64,000 nucleotides of DNA from Escherichia coli (GTDB taxonomy: Bacteria; Pseudomonadota; Gammaproteobacteria; Enterobacterales; Enterobacteriaceae), in NCBI GenBank assembly GCA_025336685.1, contig GCA_025336685.1_4717.1. One strand, 5' to 3'. A program made the position numbers and the translations under genes. The notes under the pieces were generated by a model. The model was given only the letters and a program-made list of their open reading frames with translations, made no database searches and was not told where the DNA came from. This document shows positions 8,470 to 14,599 of this stretch, in pieces; within the stretch, counting starts at the first letter, position 1; the number at the start of each line of letters is the position of its first letter.

Positions 8470-8763
8470 TTAATGCAATTGCTTCTTAAAACCTAATTTA
8501 AGAAGCGTCATTCTCTTGTCGATGGTATCTAAGGCTTCCAGCAAGGATTTACGCTGCTCCTTTGTAAGCATATCGACGCGTAGACGTTCGTTAATTTCTG
8601 CTTTAAGTTGTATAGGAAGGGTTTGTGTAAGTATGCTATCAGCCTCCATCTCGTAACTATTTTTCGGTATGGGTAATGCTTCAGTAACGCCAGTGAGATA
8701 AAAACCGATAATGGTTACTCGTTTATCCATTGCTTCTAACAGTTCAGAACTTACTTCATCCAC
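8470..8763 (-). CDS. hypothetical protein
   Basis: Track start at 8796 is a GTG inside the terminator hairpin; GTG at 8763 has GGAG 8 nt upstream; ATG at 8730 is an alternative. Confidence 0.35.
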   Translation of the reverse strand: MDEVSSELLEAMDKRVTIIGFYLTGVTEALPIPKNSYEMEADSILTQTLPIQLKAEINERLRVDMLTKEQRKSLLEALDTIDKRMTLLKLGFKKQLH

Positions 8764-8780
8764 GATAGTTCTCCGTATTA

Positions 8781-8798
8781 GGGTGGGCGTACCCACCC
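8781..8798 (-). terminator. hairpin GGGTGGG-CGTA-CCCACCC immediately after the thyA stop
   Basis: Perfect 7-bp stem, 4-nt loop (UACG on the minus-strand RNA). Confidence 0.45.
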
Positions 8799-8810
8799 TC
8801 AGTTGTTAAT

Positions 8811-9107
8811 TTATACCGCCACCTTAGCCTTGATAGCAGGGTGTGATTGATAACCGACGAATACAAAGTCTTCGTAGCGGTAATCCGTAATACTTTCCGG
8901 TTTACGTACGATTGTTAGCTTCGGTAATGGATACGGCTCACGACTAAGTTGCTCTTTAACCTGTTCGAAATGGTTGTGATAGATGTGGCAATCCCCACCC
9001 GTCCACACGAACTCACCAACGTCCATATTCAACTGCTGGGCAAGCATATGCGTTAGCAACGAATATGATGCGATGTTGAATGGAACACCTAAAAATACGT
9101 CAGCACT
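8811..9107 (-). CDS. thyA: thymidylate synthase, exon 2
   Basis: [25 protein letters not shown]...[10 protein letters not shown] matches the ThyA C-terminal half; joins in frame to exon 1 ending ...LSCQLYQR. Confidence 0.85.
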
Positions 9108-10214
9108 CATTCTGTTCAGATAAGGTCGTTAATCTTATCCCGTTAAAATAACAGCTGTAGATTATCTCTACAGTTCGGACTATATCACGATCTCCTTCCC
9201 TGGAGACCCCTCCCGTTTCACACCCACTTGGGCGTTACGCTACTCATCACTATTTTTATTCATCCGTTTAGTGCTTTCGCTAGTCTCTGGGCATTCTTCT
9301 ACAAGTCTGTACGATTCAAATTTGGGATTTTTACTACCTAATCGATAAAGTATCGTTGCCGGAACAACACCTAACTGCCGAGCCGCCTCAGTTAAAGAGA
9401 CATACTGAATTCCGTCGATTTCCACTTTACGTGCTGTAGTGGGAATCTTCCCCTTATTCACTTCGGCAAGACGACGTCGCGTCTCTTCTGTATGGTGTCG
9501 CCCATAGAACGAATTCTTTTCCCCGGTTCGGGTTTTTGCAAACTCTGATATCTTTCGACGAGTTTCTTCGCCAACCTTTACACCTAGGCGTCTAGCCCTA
9601 GACGCCGCGATGTTTTCGGGAGTGCATACTTTTCGCCGAATGAGTTCACGTGTTTCCGGTGTATGTGTTCGACCATACATCCCGTTACGTTCGCCCGGAT
9701 TGCCATGAACAGCGCGCCTTTGTTCAGGCGACATCGAAGCGAATCGATCGTTAACGACTTTAGTTATTTTCTCGATTATGTCATCGCGACGTGGGTTTCT
9801 CGATAAATTATCACCGCCTAAAGCACCTTTCCCGATATTGAGAGATGCTTCTTCCGGGATGCTATCGATATACACCTGCTCTAAAGCGTATGCCTCTTCT
9901 CGGGTACTACATTCATCGATATCCACGGTGATAAATCCACCACGGTTATGGATATCTTGTAATTTAGCGTTGTGGTGAGAACCATTACGCAAAGCCGATC
10001 TGTGCGTAGCTAACCGCTGATTAATGTTCCCGGTGCTACCAACATAGACATCGCCGTCTTGAGTACATAACCGATATACTACTGGTTTTTTCATACTGCC
10101 TCCTTTAAAAGAGAGACAGACTTGTAGAAGGTTAGCAACGGATTAGCCCGTAGGCTTTCCCGTTTTAAGGAGGTTATTCGACGTAGCTCACGCTACGAAG
10201 GCGCAGTTGCGTTT
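9108..10214 (-). other. group I intron (1107 nt) in thyA
   Basis: Exon 1 ends in U, intron ends in G (..CUGAACAGAAUG); P-like UUAAAACGGGAAAGCC, Q-like AAUCCGUUGC, R-like CCCAGAGACUAGCGAAAG, S-like GUGAUAUAGUCCG; last ~35 nt closely resemble the T4 td intron 3' end as I recall it. Confidence 0.8.
9240..10094 (-). CDS. GIY-YIG homing endonuclease encoded inside the thyA intron
   Basis: N-terminus VVYRLCTQDGDVYVGSTGNINQRLATH (GIY-YIG), repeated NUMOD-like GxxNxxYGRxHTxETR segments, C-terminal HTH-like region; ATG 10094 preceded by AGGAGG. Confidence 0.85.
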   Translation of the reverse strand: MKKPVVYRLCTQDGDVYVGSTGNINQRLATHRSALRNGSHHNAKLQDIHNRGGFITVDIDECSTREEAYALEQVYIDSIPEEASLNIGKGALGGDNLSRNPRRDDIIEKITKVVNDRFASMSPEQRRAVHGNPGERNGMYGRTHTPETRELIRRKVCTPENIAASRARRLGVKVGEETRRKISEFAKTRTGEKNSFYGRHHTEETRRRLAEVNKGKIPTTARKVEIDGIQYVSLTEAARQLGVVPATILYRLGSKNPKFESYRLVEECPETSESTKRMNKNSDE

Positions 10215-10937
10215 ACGCTGGTAAAGCTGACAGGATAAAGCACGTGTTGGTACGTTATGCGCATTCAACCAAAGTTCTGTTTCACTGCGTCGTACATCAT
10301 CCGTAACCCACTGGGTTCTTAATACGTCGTTGCGCTGGACATAATCAACGCGTTCATCGAGTGTGAGTTCGTGGGTATAGAACTGATAGAATGAATGGCA
10401 CGGAGCGAGATGCATATCGTCTAAATCACCTACGTTCCATGCGCTAACGATGATCCGTCGAGAATCAGGATCTTCTTTAAGCTGACGCATCACGTTTGCA
10501 ATCTGATCGTGATGTCTAACATACACGAGGTGTTTTAGCATACCGTCATTAAGAATGCCGAAATATTCATAGCCGCGTTGCATCAACTCACGAGTACGTT
10601 CTGTATCGTGCGGAACAACCACTTTATAGTCGATCCATTCCCGCCATTGTTTGCCGTAAATCGGTCCTAGATTCCCTTCTTCGTCAGCCCATTCATTCCA
10701 GATACGAACACCGTTATCTTGAAGATAAGCAACGTTTGTGTCGCCGTTAAGAAACCAGAGCAGTTCGTGGATAACGCTCTTAAGGTGAATCTTCTTGGTG
10801 GTTACCAGCGGAAATCCTTTCTTCAAGTCAAAACGCATCTGACGTCCGAATACGGAACGGGTCCCGGTCCCCGTGCGGTCGGCTTTATCGCGACCGTTAT
10901 CCATGATGTCTTGCAAAAGGTCCAAATACTGTTTCAT
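10215..10937 (-). CDS. thyA: thymidylate synthase, exon 1
   Basis: [31 protein letters not shown]...[32 protein letters not shown]...LSCQLYQR; in-frame read-through into the intron gives KRNCAFVA-stop. Confidence 0.85.
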
Positions 10938-11137
10938 TTTAATCCTCTAAGTGTTTCAAGTAGTTCCTGAAATTTATAACGATATTTAGAATCACTTAAC
11001 GTGTAGCAGCAACCACGTAACACGTTATACGCGTAATCAGCTTGTAAACCACGAACCTTCGGATCCAATGATAGATTCAATGACGCGTCATCAAAAATCC
11101 ACGCTTCAATGTTCTTCTTAGATTCCTTCGTTAACAT
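10934..11137 (-). CDS. hypothetical protein
   Basis: Track start 11146 is GTG; ATG 11137 has GAGGTGA upstream; stop overlaps thyA start. Confidence 0.4.
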
Positions 11138-11268
11138 CGTTTTCACCTCGTCGTAAAAGTAAATAGAGTTTTGTCGAGACGCCCTAATTACTTACAACGT
11201 AGGTTCTCCTGGCTTCAGAGAATTCTTAAAATCCGTTAGTTTTGATAGATAGGATAAGACGGCATAAA

Positions 11269-11289
11269 AGCCTCCCATTACGGGAGGCT
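11269..11289 (-). terminator. hairpin AGCCTCCC/GGGAGGCT followed on the minus strand by UUUUAUGCCG
   Basis: 8-bp stem, then U-rich tract. Confidence 0.5.
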
Positions 11290-11301
11290 CCATCAATCAA
11301 C

Positions 11302-11850
11302 TTACTTCACGAGAACAGTGAATTCGAGAACGTAAATAGTCTCGTCATCCATCGGATTTGTCGTGGTATAACCAACAAAGCAATAACCCATATCCGCGAT
11401 AAAATCGCTAAGTTTATCAACATCGCCTACATTGATACGATCATCAACAGACAGACGACATTTACGGGTTATACCACATCCGCGAGGAACACCGGATAAC
11501 ACGGATAGGAAATGCGCGATCCGGTTATTGGTTGCGAACTGTGCATAATCGCCGTAGCGTTTAAGGTCCTTCATCGCAACCTCGACAGCCATACGACGAC
11601 CAGGCGCTACGTATTCAGTGTACGCATACGCTGCGATCGTACGACGATCTTCAGTCAGGTAAGTATTCCCATCAGGATGGTAGCTCTCGATTGTTCCGTC
11701 TTCATAGGTGACGTTTACAACAGGTGCACCGTACTCGTCGCGACCGAATTCAATCTTGCATTTATCCGAAAGCGGTAGAATCGTACACGGTTTTGCGTTG
11801 TTCTCATCGGGGAGATTATAACCGCTCATCATTTTCAAAAAGATAGACAT
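11302..11850 (-). CDS. hypothetical protein, tandem paralog A
   Basis: MSIFLKMMSGYNLPDENNAKP...TIAAYAYTEY aligns with the adjacent 11937..12470 product; RBS GAGGT. Confidence 0.5.
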   Translation of the reverse strand: MSIFLKMMSGYNLPDENNAKPCTILPLSDKCKIEFGRDEYGAPVVNVTYEDGTIESYHPDGNTYLTEDRRTIAAYAYTEYVAPGRRMAVEVAMKDLKRYGDYAQFATNNRIAHFLSVLSGVPRGCGITRKCRLSVDDRINVGDVDKLSDFIADMGYCFVGYTTTNPMDDETIYVLEFTVLVK

Positions 11851-11936
11851 AATAGAACCTCATGATAATAGATAATAGAAATGATAGATAGTACAACAAA
11901 TTGAGGAGGTATTATCCCACCCCCTCGTAGGGATTA

Positions 11937-12470
11937 CTACTTAACGATCGCGATGATTTTGCCGCTCGCACCGGCGTAATATGCTGTTAATTTACCAGTA
12001 AACAACTCTTGTAAAAGACGATTTACATGACTAACAAAGTTAGGGTTGTCTGATTTTACAAACTCGATATTGCGCGTTTGTTTTATATCACGATCGATTA
12101 AGCGTATTTCCAACAACGCACAAATAAGGCGATCGTCAAGTTTACCACTTGTATCCAACACTTCCCCATACGTCGTAGCACGGACGTCCGCATACATACG
12201 GTCAACATCATCCTTCCCAAAACCACAGGAATAGGCATACGTTGCGATGGTATTACCATTGTCCATCACATAAACGTTACCGCCTGGGTAATCGATAAAT
12301 CGTTGATCCTTATCGCCATGAGCGACGAACTCCAGTGTCGGTCTACCTAGTGAATCACGATTGAATTCGATTGTGGTCAAACGGTCAGGTACCACATGCA
12401 ACGTAAACGGTTTCGCATTGTTACGATCGCTAGTATCACAGTTAGCCATTACTTTTACAATAACACTCAT
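11937..12470 (-). CDS. hypothetical protein, tandem paralog B
   Basis: MSVIVKVMANCDTSDRNNAKP...TIATYAYSCGF; RBS AAGGAA. Confidence 0.5.
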   Translation of the reverse strand: MSVIVKVMANCDTSDRNNAKPFTLHVVPDRLTTIEFNRDSLGRPTLEFVAHGDKDQRFIDYPGGNVYVMDNGNTIATYAYSCGFGKDDVDRMYADVRATTYGEVLDTSGKLDDRLICALLEIRLIDRDIKQTRNIEFVKSDNPNFVSHVNRLLQELFTGKLTAYYAGASGKIIAIVK

Positions 12471-12544
12471 GTTTTATTCCTTAGTAGTCCTAGTAGTAGT
12501 ATTGAGGAATTTCACCTCATTAGATAGTCTATTTTGGTAATGTT

Positions 12545-12844
12545 TTACTGAAACAGGACATTAAATTCGACAAGATACCCATCGGATCTATCACCACGAT
12601 AACGGTTGCAGAAAACGCCGAATTTCATCAAGAACTCACATAACTCTTCGGCTTTGTATAACGGAATACGATTTTCGTCGAACAGAGGGCACTTATGGCT
12701 AACCCGCTCCGACGAATCAACGCAACACAAATAAAGAAGGAACCGAACGATAGCTCGGTTCTTAGTGAAGCTCTCGAATTCACCTGCGGTTCTGAACTCA
12801 TCGAGGAGCTTTGTCGTTTTCTTCAATCGTTCACGATCAAGCAT
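12545..12844 (-). CDS. hypothetical protein
   Basis: 99-aa ORF, RBS GAGG. Confidence 0.45.
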   Translation of the reverse strand: MLDRERLKKTTKLLDEFRTAGEFESFTKNRAIVRFLLYLCCVDSSERVSHKCPLFDENRIPLYKAEELCEFLMKFGVFCNRYRGDRSDGYLVEFNVLFQ

Positions 12845-12866
12845 GTTAACCTCAATACGAACATAA

Positions 12867-12898
12867 CCCTCCTCCTTCCCTGATGGGTTGGAGGAGGG
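12867..12898 (-). terminator. hairpin CCCTCCTCC ... GGAGGAGGG
   Basis: 9-bp stem downstream of the 12908 stop. Confidence 0.45.
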
Positions 12899-12907
12899 AA
12901 TATGCTA

Positions 12908-13222
12908 TTATTCTGCTTTAGGCGATGAACCGTTCTTTTTGAAGTCGGATTCGTATTTCACGTTAGAATCGAGAACCTCACGAACGGTTTTATCCGTACA
13001 ACCACGGGCGATGTATGCATTAAGATCGTCGCGTAATTTACGCATTGTTGTTTTATCCGCATCAGAAACATCTGACTTGGTAAGACGGAACGCAATCGCA
13101 TCACGAATTTTATTCAACATTGCTGGGTTATTACGCTGTTCTGCAAATACCGCTTTGATGAACTTATCGCTATCTTTCGAAGCGATGGCTGCATCAAGAA
13201 TCTCAATATGCTTTTCAGACAT
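12908..13222 (-). CDS. hypothetical protein
   Basis: 104-aa ORF, RBS AAAGGAA. Confidence 0.5.
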   Translation of the reverse strand: MSEKHIEILDAAIASKDSDKFIKAVFAEQRNNPAMLNKIRDAIAFRLTKSDVSDADKTTMRKLRDDLNAYIARGCTDKTVREVLDSNVKYESDFKKNGSSPKAE

Positions 13223-13273
13223 CTTCTTTCCTTTATTAAACGATCATCGTCATATTCATTGCGCAGGGTGCTA

Positions 13274-14599
13274 TCACTTCAGAAGCTTAGACATCGCCAT
13301 GCTTCGCGCTAACGCAACATCATACGCATCCATGATCGCGTCACCGATAGCGGTATGACGGATCAGCGGAATACCCATGTCTGGATACTCTTTGGTGCCT
13401 AAGATGGATACCGGTTTGTCTTGATACGCAGCAATCATCGAACGGATATCCTGAACCTGGTTATAACGACAAACTGGCTTAAAGCCCGCTTTACGGAACC
13501 AATGCTCTAATTGAGGCCAATCTGTTTCACCGCGAGCAAGATAATAGAAGGTATCCTTACCGTAGTATTCAGTCATTTTGTCACGAATACTGTTGACGAA
13601 CGCATTTACTTCGGTGATGGCTTCTTTATAACCCATTGCCTTACAATGTTGAAAACAATAGTCGCGCGCTTCCTTTGGTGCTTTGGTTTGCCACCATTCT
13701 ACTGTTGATTCACTGATACGACCACCGTCAGCGATTTGACCATGAACGTCAGGGAAGATATCTATACGCGGACCGTTAACAATGGATTCTGGATTAGCCA
13801 GATCGAAGAACACGATACCGATTTCCAGCAATACTCCATTCTTTTCCAGACTAAGGTTTTCAACATCTAAACAAAATGCAGGCTTCTCTACCGCTAACGG
13901 CTCGAACGAATGGTTGCTGGTATCCGATTCGGTTTTAAGTTCGACGACAACCGGATCGGTATCCGTAGGTTTCAGTTCTACTACAGCATCATCGAGTCCC
14001 GATAACGAAAAATAGTCTTCGAAGAAATCGGGTATCGTCATGCCATGCAAATTGATATCGCAATCTTCCAACCATTGCTTCAACTGGTGCTCACCGGCAT
14101 GAATCGCTAAACGACATGGTCCGGAACGATCATCTAGCGCTGCATCGATCCAGAAGAAAGCGCGTATAAGTAAGTAAGGATTGTACTCCGCGATGATTTC
14201 TTGGCTAGCCGAGAAATCGTACACCATTAGTTGTGTTATTCCCTTACGAGTGTTATACGGATCAACTTTCAATCGACGCACTATTTCTTCTACGAATTCC
14301 AACGCACGCGTGTACGATGTGGACCCACCTTGTTCATACGAACATATACCCGTCAAAAGTTCCTTATAGGACGCATATGGAACCATAGGCGATAATTTGT
14401 ACGACAGTTCAGTATTGTAATTATCGCATAATTTCTTCGGGGCGATAGCATCCTGTATCGCTGTAATAAACGCCGGTCCATCAATATCAAACAACCATCC
14501 TTGACGCCGGTATGCAGTGTATCGTAATAACGCACCGATAACTGCCTGGGGCGGTGTATATTCTTTTCCGTTAATTTCAAACAGTAGTTTGCTCATCAT
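13274..14599 (-). CDS. protein with C-terminal DnaQ-like (DEDDh) 3'-5' exonuclease domain
   Basis: FCLDVENLS (Exo I D-x-E), later HTAIGDAIMDAYDVAL (Exo III H-x-A-x-x-D-A); N-terminal ~230 aa unassigned. Confidence 0.6.
   Translation of the reverse strand: MMSKLLFEINGKEYTPPQAVIGALLRYTAYRRQGWLFDIDGPAFITAIQDAIAPKKLCDNYNTELSYKLSPMVPYASYKELLTGICSYEQGGSTSYTRALEFVEEIVRRLKVDPYNTRKGITQLMVYDFSASQEIIAEYNPYLLIRAFFWIDAALDDRSGPCRLAIHAGEHQLKQWLEDCDINLHGMTIPDFFEDYFSLSGLDDAVVELKPTDTDPVVVELKTESDTSNHSFEPLAVEKPAFCLDVENLSLEKNGVLLEIGIVFFDLANPESIVNGPRIDIFPDVHGQIADGGRISESTVEWWQTKAPKEARDYCFQHCKAMGYKEAITEVNAFVNSIRDKMTEYYGKDTFYYLARGETDWPQLEHWFRKAGFKPVCRYNQVQDIRSMIAAYQDKPVSILGTKEYPDMGIPLIRHTAIGDAIMDAYDVALARSMAMSKLLK

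Follow-up and report, generated by a model that had tools for sequence, protein, structure and literature searches.

Tandem two-domain genes and a C-domain-only relative at a copy-number-variable early locus of a Goslar-like jumbo phage

Two neighbouring minus-strand genes in a 64,000-nucleotide stretch of DNA filed under Escherichia coli (contig GCA_025336685.1_4717.1, called the window throughout) raise the question of whether they are copies of one another and, if so, how much of each was copied. A reading made from the letters of this DNA and nothing else (the sequence-only reading) had proposed that the two, here named gene A and gene B, are a diverged local tandem duplication whose products align along their length, each with its own ribosome-binding site (RBS). 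Both open reading frames (ORFs) lie on the minus strand exactly where it had placed them, and encode 182 and 177 residues. Between positions 10900 and 13300 the DNA is 92.7% identical in nucleotide sequence to Escherichia phage vB_EcoM_Goslar, a nucleus-forming jumbo phage (Chimalliviridae), and the window is that of a Goslar relative. Gene A is 83% identical in amino acid sequence to Goslar gp143, gene B is the orthologue of gp144, and proteins identical or near-identical to B were found on contigs of ~240 kb.

Comparison of the two genes with each other, with their relatives and with predicted structures shows that A, B and a third gene, ORF C, form a small birth-and-death family in an early-gene block of a Goslar-like jumbo phage. 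It also shows that A and B are two-domain proteins, with an all-beta N-terminal domain (N-domain) of ~80 residues followed by an alpha/beta C-terminal domain (C-domain) of ~95–100 residues. Judged from the predicted models, A and B are probably full-length paralogs that go back to the duplication of a complete two-domain gene, with C-domains that have since diverged past sequence recognition, a reading to which we give a probability of roughly 70%.

How much of A and B is shared

BLASTP aligned residues 1–78 of A with residues 1–81 of B at 36% identity (E 4e-14), and the Smith-Waterman score of the pair was 132 against 31 ± 5 for 2000 shuffles (z = 20–22), none of which scored as high; the comparison with shuffled controls that the sequence-only reading had set as its own check therefore came out far above chance. 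This similarity is limited to the N-terminal 81–84 residues, and both peptide motifs on which that reading had relied, although correctly quoted, fall inside them. The C-halves of A and B scored 24 against 24.8 ± 4.5 for shuffles (z = -0.2), and a profile-profile comparison of the two C-half families with hhalign returned a probability of 0.08% and detected no relation. The proposed alignment along the length of the proteins thus holds for the N-terminal 81–84 residues and fails, at sequence level, for the C-halves, where only predicted structure hints at a full-length correspondence. At the DNA level only a 42-nt patch could be aligned, which indicates that the duplication is old.

AlphaFold2 (AF2) models of A and B were built with alignments of ~95 sequences, giving a predicted local distance difference test score (pLDDT) of 93 and a predicted template modelling score (pTM) of 0.82 for A, and values of 85 and 0.57, respectively, for B. 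Both models place seven short strands in residues 3–78 (in model A from E3-8 to E70-75), followed by the order H-H-H-E-H-E-E, so that 14 secondary-structure elements occur in identical order in A and B, with starts within five residues of each other. When the secondary-structure strings of the C-halves were aligned the score was 61, compared with 21 ± 11 when the order of elements was shuffled, and none of 500 shuffles reached 61. Likewise, Foldseek produced an alignment of 188 columns between model B and the BFVD model of Goslar gp143, with E 3.9e-12; other homologues in the same search gave E 1e-6 to 1e-8. Across the two domains, then, the N-domain is homologous by sequence, and the C-domain, which carries no sequence signal, has the same predicted element order and is covered by a full-length Foldseek alignment.

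A different history would account for part of these data. A and B might share only a mobile N-domain set on two unrelated C-domains, the match in topology being convergence on a common small alpha/beta layout. The C-halves that align no better than shuffles (z -0.2) and the hhalign probability of 0.08% are what such module sharing would leave behind, the N-domain is joined elsewhere to at least 34 C-regions that are unrelated by BLAST, so that shuffling clearly occurs in the family, and the C-domain of A also exists as a separate gene, ORF C. We nevertheless regard it as unlikely, because the predicted element order is identical with boundaries that differ by no more than five residues over ~95 residues, the Foldseek alignment of B with gp143 runs the full length with an E value 4–6 orders better than those of the other matches in that search, A and B are nearly equal in total length, and two relatives of the phage (contigs L017 and L018) carry a whole-gene duplicate that is B-like.

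Whole-gene duplication, the account we prefer, has results of its own to contend with. The C-halves of A and B lack any sequence signal, whether by shuffles, hidden Markov models (HMM) or hhalign, which leaves predicted structure as the sole basis for extending the duplication to the whole gene. Furthermore, the Foldseek TM score of B against the BFVD gp143 model was only 0.48; against the same BFVD model even model A reached just 0.62. The structure prediction that the sequence-only reading had recommended is accordingly divided, with the 14 elements in the same order in both proteins on one side and the TM score of 0.48 on the other. Its central proposal of diverged local tandem paralogs stands, given homologous N-domains, near-equal lengths, the same predicted topology and a separate RBS for each gene; as tandem paralogs, A and B are a genuine, old and ordinary phenomenon in jumbo phages.

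The two C-domains differ in the relatives that could be traced for them. The A5 profile matches the C-domain of A at E 2.8e-52, and this A-type C-domain was met only in Goslar-like genomes, a scan of IMG/VR with the C-domain profile also returning Goslar-like contigs only. The C-region of a 200-aa third paralog present in some relatives links weakly to the A-type C-domain (hhalign P 6e-4), and the B-type C-domain was linked to nothing by HMM or hhalign, including searches by way of this 200-aa paralog and of P0128. Two structural candidates were rejected. The top Foldseek match in the PDB, the PhiKZ whisker/neck protein gp34 (PDB 9xps), gave E 0.011, TM 0.17 and a root-mean-square deviation of 17.7, and its published architecture, in which a beta-barrel and helices come after a 3-stranded sheet with a helix (PMC13250141), is unlike that of the A and B models. 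The best Foldseek match to a GNAT acetyltransferase had E 0.05 and TM 0.2–0.25, with no Pfam acetyltransferase match.

Sequence homology also identifies ORF C, which lies upstream of B, as a third family member that had been missed. Residues 93–182 of A are homologous to ORF C (24% identity, E 7e-8, z 12.4), and the cluster therefore reads as C-domain only, then N-domain with B-type C-domain, then N-domain with A-type C-domain; ORF C probably derives from an A-type C-domain. It is 98% conserved in Goslar and unannotated in either Goslar record, in which an ORF on the opposite strand (Goslar_00145 / HOV27_gp145) is annotated over it. In the window this plus-strand ORF (12695..12883) encodes 62 aa, compared with 75 aa in Goslar, and its shorter length suggests a mis-call in the reference. 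Among related metagenomic contigs, gene callers list ORF C at 99 aa in L012, L013, L015 and L017, and an intact ORF of 99–103 codons matching the A-type C-domain profile is present in L012–L015, L017 and L018 and absent from L016. A GAGG motif precedes it at 12850-12853 on the minus strand. These results correct the Goslar reference annotation, where ORF C should stand as a conserved minus-strand gene under selection.

The N-domain as a phage domain family

The N-domain of A and B extends far beyond this locus. Searched exhaustively with the N-domain profile, a set of 1.84 billion representative proteins yielded 183 clusters at E<=1e-3, and among the 148 clusters listed 93 are stand-alone proteins of ~75–115 aa and 51 are N-terminal fusions of 115–481 aa, whose C-regions fall into at least 34 groups unrelated by BLAST. 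Four giant repeat proteins (Flg_new_2, Big_3_5 and LRR surface proteins) were judged spurious, their scores being sums of weak matches to Ig-like repeats. The domain has its start no later than residue 15 in 140 of the 144 non-repeat representatives, most of the listed stretches starting at residues 1–6, and in A and B it begins at residue 1–3. A profile built from 75 diverse members matches both proteins over the whole domain of ~80 residues (A, E 9.6e-29; B, E 7.8e-26), and the residues that are near-invariant in the family (K6, M8, D15, K20, G61, N62, Y64 and T71 in A numbering; motif KMMS...GNxYVM..GKTIA) are all found in A and B. On this sequence evidence the earlier view of the locus needs refining, in that the shared N-domain is a widespread modular phage domain and not the private product of one duplication.

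Parts of this family are already present in PHROGs under separate entries that have no assigned function. Phrog_10337 matches A at E 1.4e-3, B at E 1.6e-7 and 61 of the 64 fusion proteins compared with it, and phrog_10807 matches B at E 4.8e-6. Together with phrog_3909 these entries represent the same N-domain family and split it by architecture, phrog_10807 being the 379-aa fusion of the RAY gp198 type, while the A- and B-type C-domains are covered by none of the three. Carriers among the chimalliviruses include gp198 of the Erwinia RAY group, 201phi2-1 gp34, EL ORF097 and Phabio; the named carriers also include Viktualia, Proteus phage 10, phiCbK-like Caulobacter phages, Vibrio phage R16F and the 45-kb Obolenskvirus phages of Acinetobacter. 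In RAY gp198 (379 aa), 201phi2-1 gp34 (228 aa), EL ORF097 (98 aa) and QMP24040 of Proteus phage 10 (239 aa), both sequence and Foldseek place the N-domain from residue 1. These are uncharacterised proteins, mostly of nucleus-forming jumbo phages, and they differ from A and B in being present as one copy per genome, not in tandem, with C-regions unrelated to those of A and B. In RAY (L002, gp198) and Phabio (L004, 456) a tRNA-Asn gene is found two genes downstream of the one for the N-domain protein, which may be conserved synteny between distant chimalliviruses.

Searches beyond these phage proteins returned little. Foldseek against BFVD found only uncharacterised phage proteins, and an IMG/VR scan with a narrower N-domain alignment found one locus. 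In the PDB, the sole sequence match to the N-domain profile, a GNTYVME motif in phycobilisome linker proteins, was rejected as chance. JADA, the activator of Avs5, was likewise set aside as unrelated, being a 721-aa protein encoded downstream of the non-virion RNA polymerase (nvRNAP). Searches of the literature on Goslar gp143 and gp144, RAY gp198, 201phi2-1 gp34 and the PHROG identifiers found no functional study. The N-domain is therefore widespread, has no Pfam entry, has a confident predicted fold without PDB relatives, and is modular in its N-terminal placement; its delineation as a phage domain family is part of what this analysis adds.

Copy number, selection and signals at the locus

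The locus was compared in relatives between the exoribonuclease and 104-aa genes on one side and thymidylate synthase on the other, as the sequence-only reading had suggested that copy number in related phages be checked, and one, two or three N-domain paralogs were found at exactly this site. L016 has one paralog, a 185-aa A-like gene, and no ORF C; the window, Goslar and L014 have two. Three are present in L012, L013 and L015, which have an extra gene of 200–201 aa, and in L017 and L018, where an extra 181-aa gene adjoins B and carries the N-domain and a B-type C-domain (E 7.6e-33). By these profile matches the 181-aa gene reads as a recent whole-gene duplicate of B and as a direct example of local duplication at this locus. 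A search of the 64-kb window found no further paralogs, and the Goslar genome holds just the two copies.

Adjacent genes at the site differ in their divergence. Between the window and Goslar the synonymous divergence (dS) is 0.5–0.7 for A, 0.14 for B and 0.12 for ORF C, and between the window and L012 it is saturated for B (dS > 1.5) and 0.16 for ORF C. The locus is a birth-and-death, recombining gene family with mosaic divergence. As pairwise Nei-Gojobori averages over 7–8 genomes, omega was 0.07 for the N-domain and 0.23 for the C-domain of A, 0.06 and 0.16, respectively, for those of B, and 0.14 for ORF C, which indicates that all three are functional coding genes under purifying selection, with C-domains that are roughly three times less constrained, and so faster evolving, than N-domains. 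That the resemblance of A and B is accidental, or that the ORFs are non-coding, has nothing in its favour beyond the absence of functional annotation, and is practically negligible as an explanation in view of the z of 20–22, the omega values of 0.06–0.23, the 183 homologous clusters, the confident AF2 models and the peptides and transcripts observed in Goslar.

Table 1. Genes, domains and expression signals of the A/B locus (positions are those of the window)
Feature	Position	Strand	Description and basis
Gene A	11302..11850	-	182 aa; ORF; orthologue of Goslar gp143; N-domain plus A-type C-domain
N-domain of A (aa 1-81), all-beta	11608..11850	-	alignment to B 1-81; N-domain profile; model
C-domain of A (aa 82-182), alpha/beta, H-H-H-E-H-E-E	11305..11607	-	homology to ORF C; model; profile
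Gene B	11937..12470	-	177 aa; ORF; orthologue of Goslar gp144; N-domain plus B-type C-domain
N-domain of B (aa 1-84), all-beta	12219..12470	-	alignment; shuffles; model; profile
C-domain of B (aa 85-177)	11940..12218	-	predicted element order as in the C-domain of A; no sequence similarity detected
ORF C	12545..12844	-	99 aa; stand-alone paralog of the C-domain of A; upstream of B
Shine-Dalgarno-like GAGG of A	11858-11861	-	7 nt before ATG
Shine-Dalgarno-like AAGGA of B	12478-12482	-	read from sequence
Terminator-like hairpin downstream of B	11903..11926	-	scan; Goslar has a terminator annotated at the equivalent place
Terminator-like hairpin downstream of A	11262..11289	-	AGCCTCCC-GTAAT-GGGAGGCT then TTTAT; Goslar terminator annotated at the equivalent place

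All genes in the A/B region are on the minus strand (Table 1). The separate RBS attributed to each copy was borne out, Shine-Dalgarno-like GAGG or AAGGA motifs being readable 5–7 nt before each ATG. Six terminator-like hairpins were found in 10900..13400 against 1.9 expected, the one downstream of A having been read from the sequence because it falls just under the T-run rule of the scan, and no sigma-70-like promoter was found in the same interval against 6.7 ± 2.5 expected in shuffles. The lack of sigma-70 sites and the excess of hairpins are consistent with transcription in many short units by RNA polymerases that the phage encodes. Two exact copies of the 10-mer CTATCTATCA are present in the 64-kb window, at 11243-11252 and 11882-11891 on the minus strand; each is on the coding strand, just past a terminator hairpin and ahead of a gene (a 70-aa gene and A, respectively), and with at most one mismatch allowed there were seven matches where 3.2 were expected. 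The 10-mer is a possible promoter element of the phage.

The neighbours of the locus are a thymidylate synthase gene downstream and a 3'-5' exoribonuclease-like gene upstream. The Rv2179c-like exoribonuclease gene is called at 441 aa in the window (13274..14599, minus strand), at 409 aa in Goslar and several relatives, and at 344–437 aa in others. The interval between A and thyA also varies by insertion and deletion. It holds just a 70-aa gene in the window and a 67-aa gene in Goslar, a 294-aa DUF7448 gene in L012, L013, L015 and L017, and a 287-aa version in L014 and L016, and relatives at times also carry 79- and 109-aa genes there. The thymidylate synthase gene itself is split (8811..10937, minus strand), with 10231..10937 and 8811..9096 matching the intact thyA of Goslar on either side of a ~1.13-kb insertion (9097..10230) that encodes a 284-aa GIY-YIG-type endonuclease ORF (9240..10094). 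The junction lies inside a conserved motif, just after ...SCQLYQR, and the exon sequence on its flanks departs from that of Goslar in a pattern reminiscent of co-conversion. The insertion resembles a T4 td-like group I intron with a homing endonuclease; no intron model in Rfam matched it at E<=0.01, and no RNA family was found in 8500-13500.

Goslar-like contigs of ~235–250 kb that carry these genes (proteins P0001-P0125) were found in many assemblies that bear the labels of E. coli (O157 among them), Salmonella enterica serovars, Shigella flexneri and Enterobacter hormaechei. It thus seems that clinical or food isolates are often co-sequenced with jumbo phages of the Goslar type, perhaps through a carrier state or pseudolysogeny.

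Expression class, possible function and known multi-copy systems

Transcripts of the two genes can be assessed in Goslar, for which RNA-seq of ChmA-knockdown cells, arrested at the early vesicle stage, has been compared with controls (10.1101/2023.09.20.558163, Supplementary Table 2). There gp143 and gp144 are unchanged (log2 fold change (log2FC) -0.10 to +0.22), while the major capsid protein (MCP), the virion RNA polymerase (vRNAP) subunits gp078, gp205 and gp207 and the injected gp058 fall by a log2FC of -3.7 to -5.6 (10.1101/2023.09.20.558163), which places A and B in the early, nucleus-independent class. Peptides of both have been detected in the Goslar virion proteome, at an estimated 6.7 copies of gp143 and 1.7 of gp144 (10.64898/2026.04.21.720040, Table S4), and the proteins are therefore made. 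In the same preparation the non-structural thymidylate synthase and exoribonuclease were estimated at ~20 and ~59 copies (10.64898/2026.04.21.720040), and because these enzymes are more abundant we read the traces of gp143 and gp144 as carry-over.

Were the traces taken at face value, A and B would be packaged or injected virion proteins, with the N-domain as a capsid-targeting or ejection module and the C-regions as cargo. Besides the peptides in purified virions, whose 6.7 and 1.7 copies are in the range of some vRNAP subunits, stand-alone homologues that adjoin MuF, portal or terminase genes in several small phages speak for this, as does the position of 201phi2-1 gp34 among tail genes. We consider it very unlikely, since the known packaged or injected Goslar proteins belong to the late class (-3.7 to -5.6) and gp143 and gp144 are at ~0, carry-over, seen at higher levels for the two enzymes, accounts for the traces, the neighbours of 201phi2-1 gp34 are annotated as "identified by mass spectrometry" and gp34 itself is not, and most family members are the N-domain alone and so not merely a tag. 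Compared with packaged or injected chimallivirus proteins such as vRNAP and the PF12699 inner-body proteins, A and B are without the late class, without a Pfam match, and at only ~7 and ~2 copies.

In its place we tentatively propose that A and B may be accessory proteins that are expressed early and work in the cytoplasm, in host interaction or counter-defence. Since most members of the family consist of the N-domain alone, this domain presumably acts on its own, and it would carry an autonomous core activity, for example the binding of a conserved bacterial target or ligand. The part of the C-domain would be to adjust specificity or regulation, C-terminal additions modifying or extending the activity of the N-domain, and changes in copy number and the swapping of alleles at the locus would reflect adaptation to different hosts. 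Several results weigh against this functional proposal. Pairwise omega is well below 1, with no positive selection at this resolution, and scans of A, B, ORF C and representative members with Pfam, NCBIfam and PADLOC gave nothing beyond chance level: Pfam had nothing for A or for 64 fusion proteins and a chance match at E 0.33 for B, and NCBIfam and PADLOC had no match at E<=1 except chance-level ones. A Foldseek search of model A against the PDB returned nothing at E<1e-3. Moreover, in seven loci of smaller phages the stand-alone homologue, typically an isolated gene with an upstream intergenic gap (~195–440 nt in five loci, ~70 nt in one and ~30 nt in one), stands beside terminase, portal or MuF genes in four. 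Such contexts are compatible with moron-like insertion at module boundaries, and at low probability they keep a virion-related role alive.

A bolder version, which we think distinctly doubtful, would make the N-domain the core of polymorphic phage effectors that act early and form a large unnamed superfamily, extended repeatedly with interchangeable C-modules of at least 34 kinds. If this were true, the core module would be self-sufficient and engage a conserved bacterial target or signalling molecule, the locus (ORF C, B and A, with or without extra copies) would work as an "accordion" in an arms race, adjusting host range or counter-defence, and ORF C, as a free copy of the C-domain of A, would have a regulatory or decoy role. 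Apart from any function, the locus offers a copy-number-variable, mosaic early-gene site in Goslar, a chimallivirus that is a tractable model in E. coli.

Two kinds of multi-copy system bear comparison with it. The DUF7941 family of chimalliviruses (Goslar gp22, gp23, gp86 and others; 10.64898/2026.04.21.720040) offers an analogy, in that its multiple paralogs within the same phage likewise combine a conserved N-module with variable C-domains. Whereas gp22 and gp23 are abundant, at an estimated 580 and 2140 copies per virion (10.64898/2026.04.21.720040), gp143 and gp144 leave only traces. The DUF7941 genes gp022, gp023, gp031, gp033 and gp034 are of the late class (log2FC -3.5 to -5.7), unlike the early-class gp143 and gp144, and neither A nor B has a Pfam match to DUF7941.

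Variable-copy accessory loci of the "accordion" or birth-and-death type are known from large DNA viruses, among them the host-range families of poxviruses and the accessory and anti-defence islands of phages. The A/B locus differs from them in showing no signature of positive selection. What it has in common with them is a set of one to three copies at a fixed site, mosaic dS in adjacent genes and early expression.

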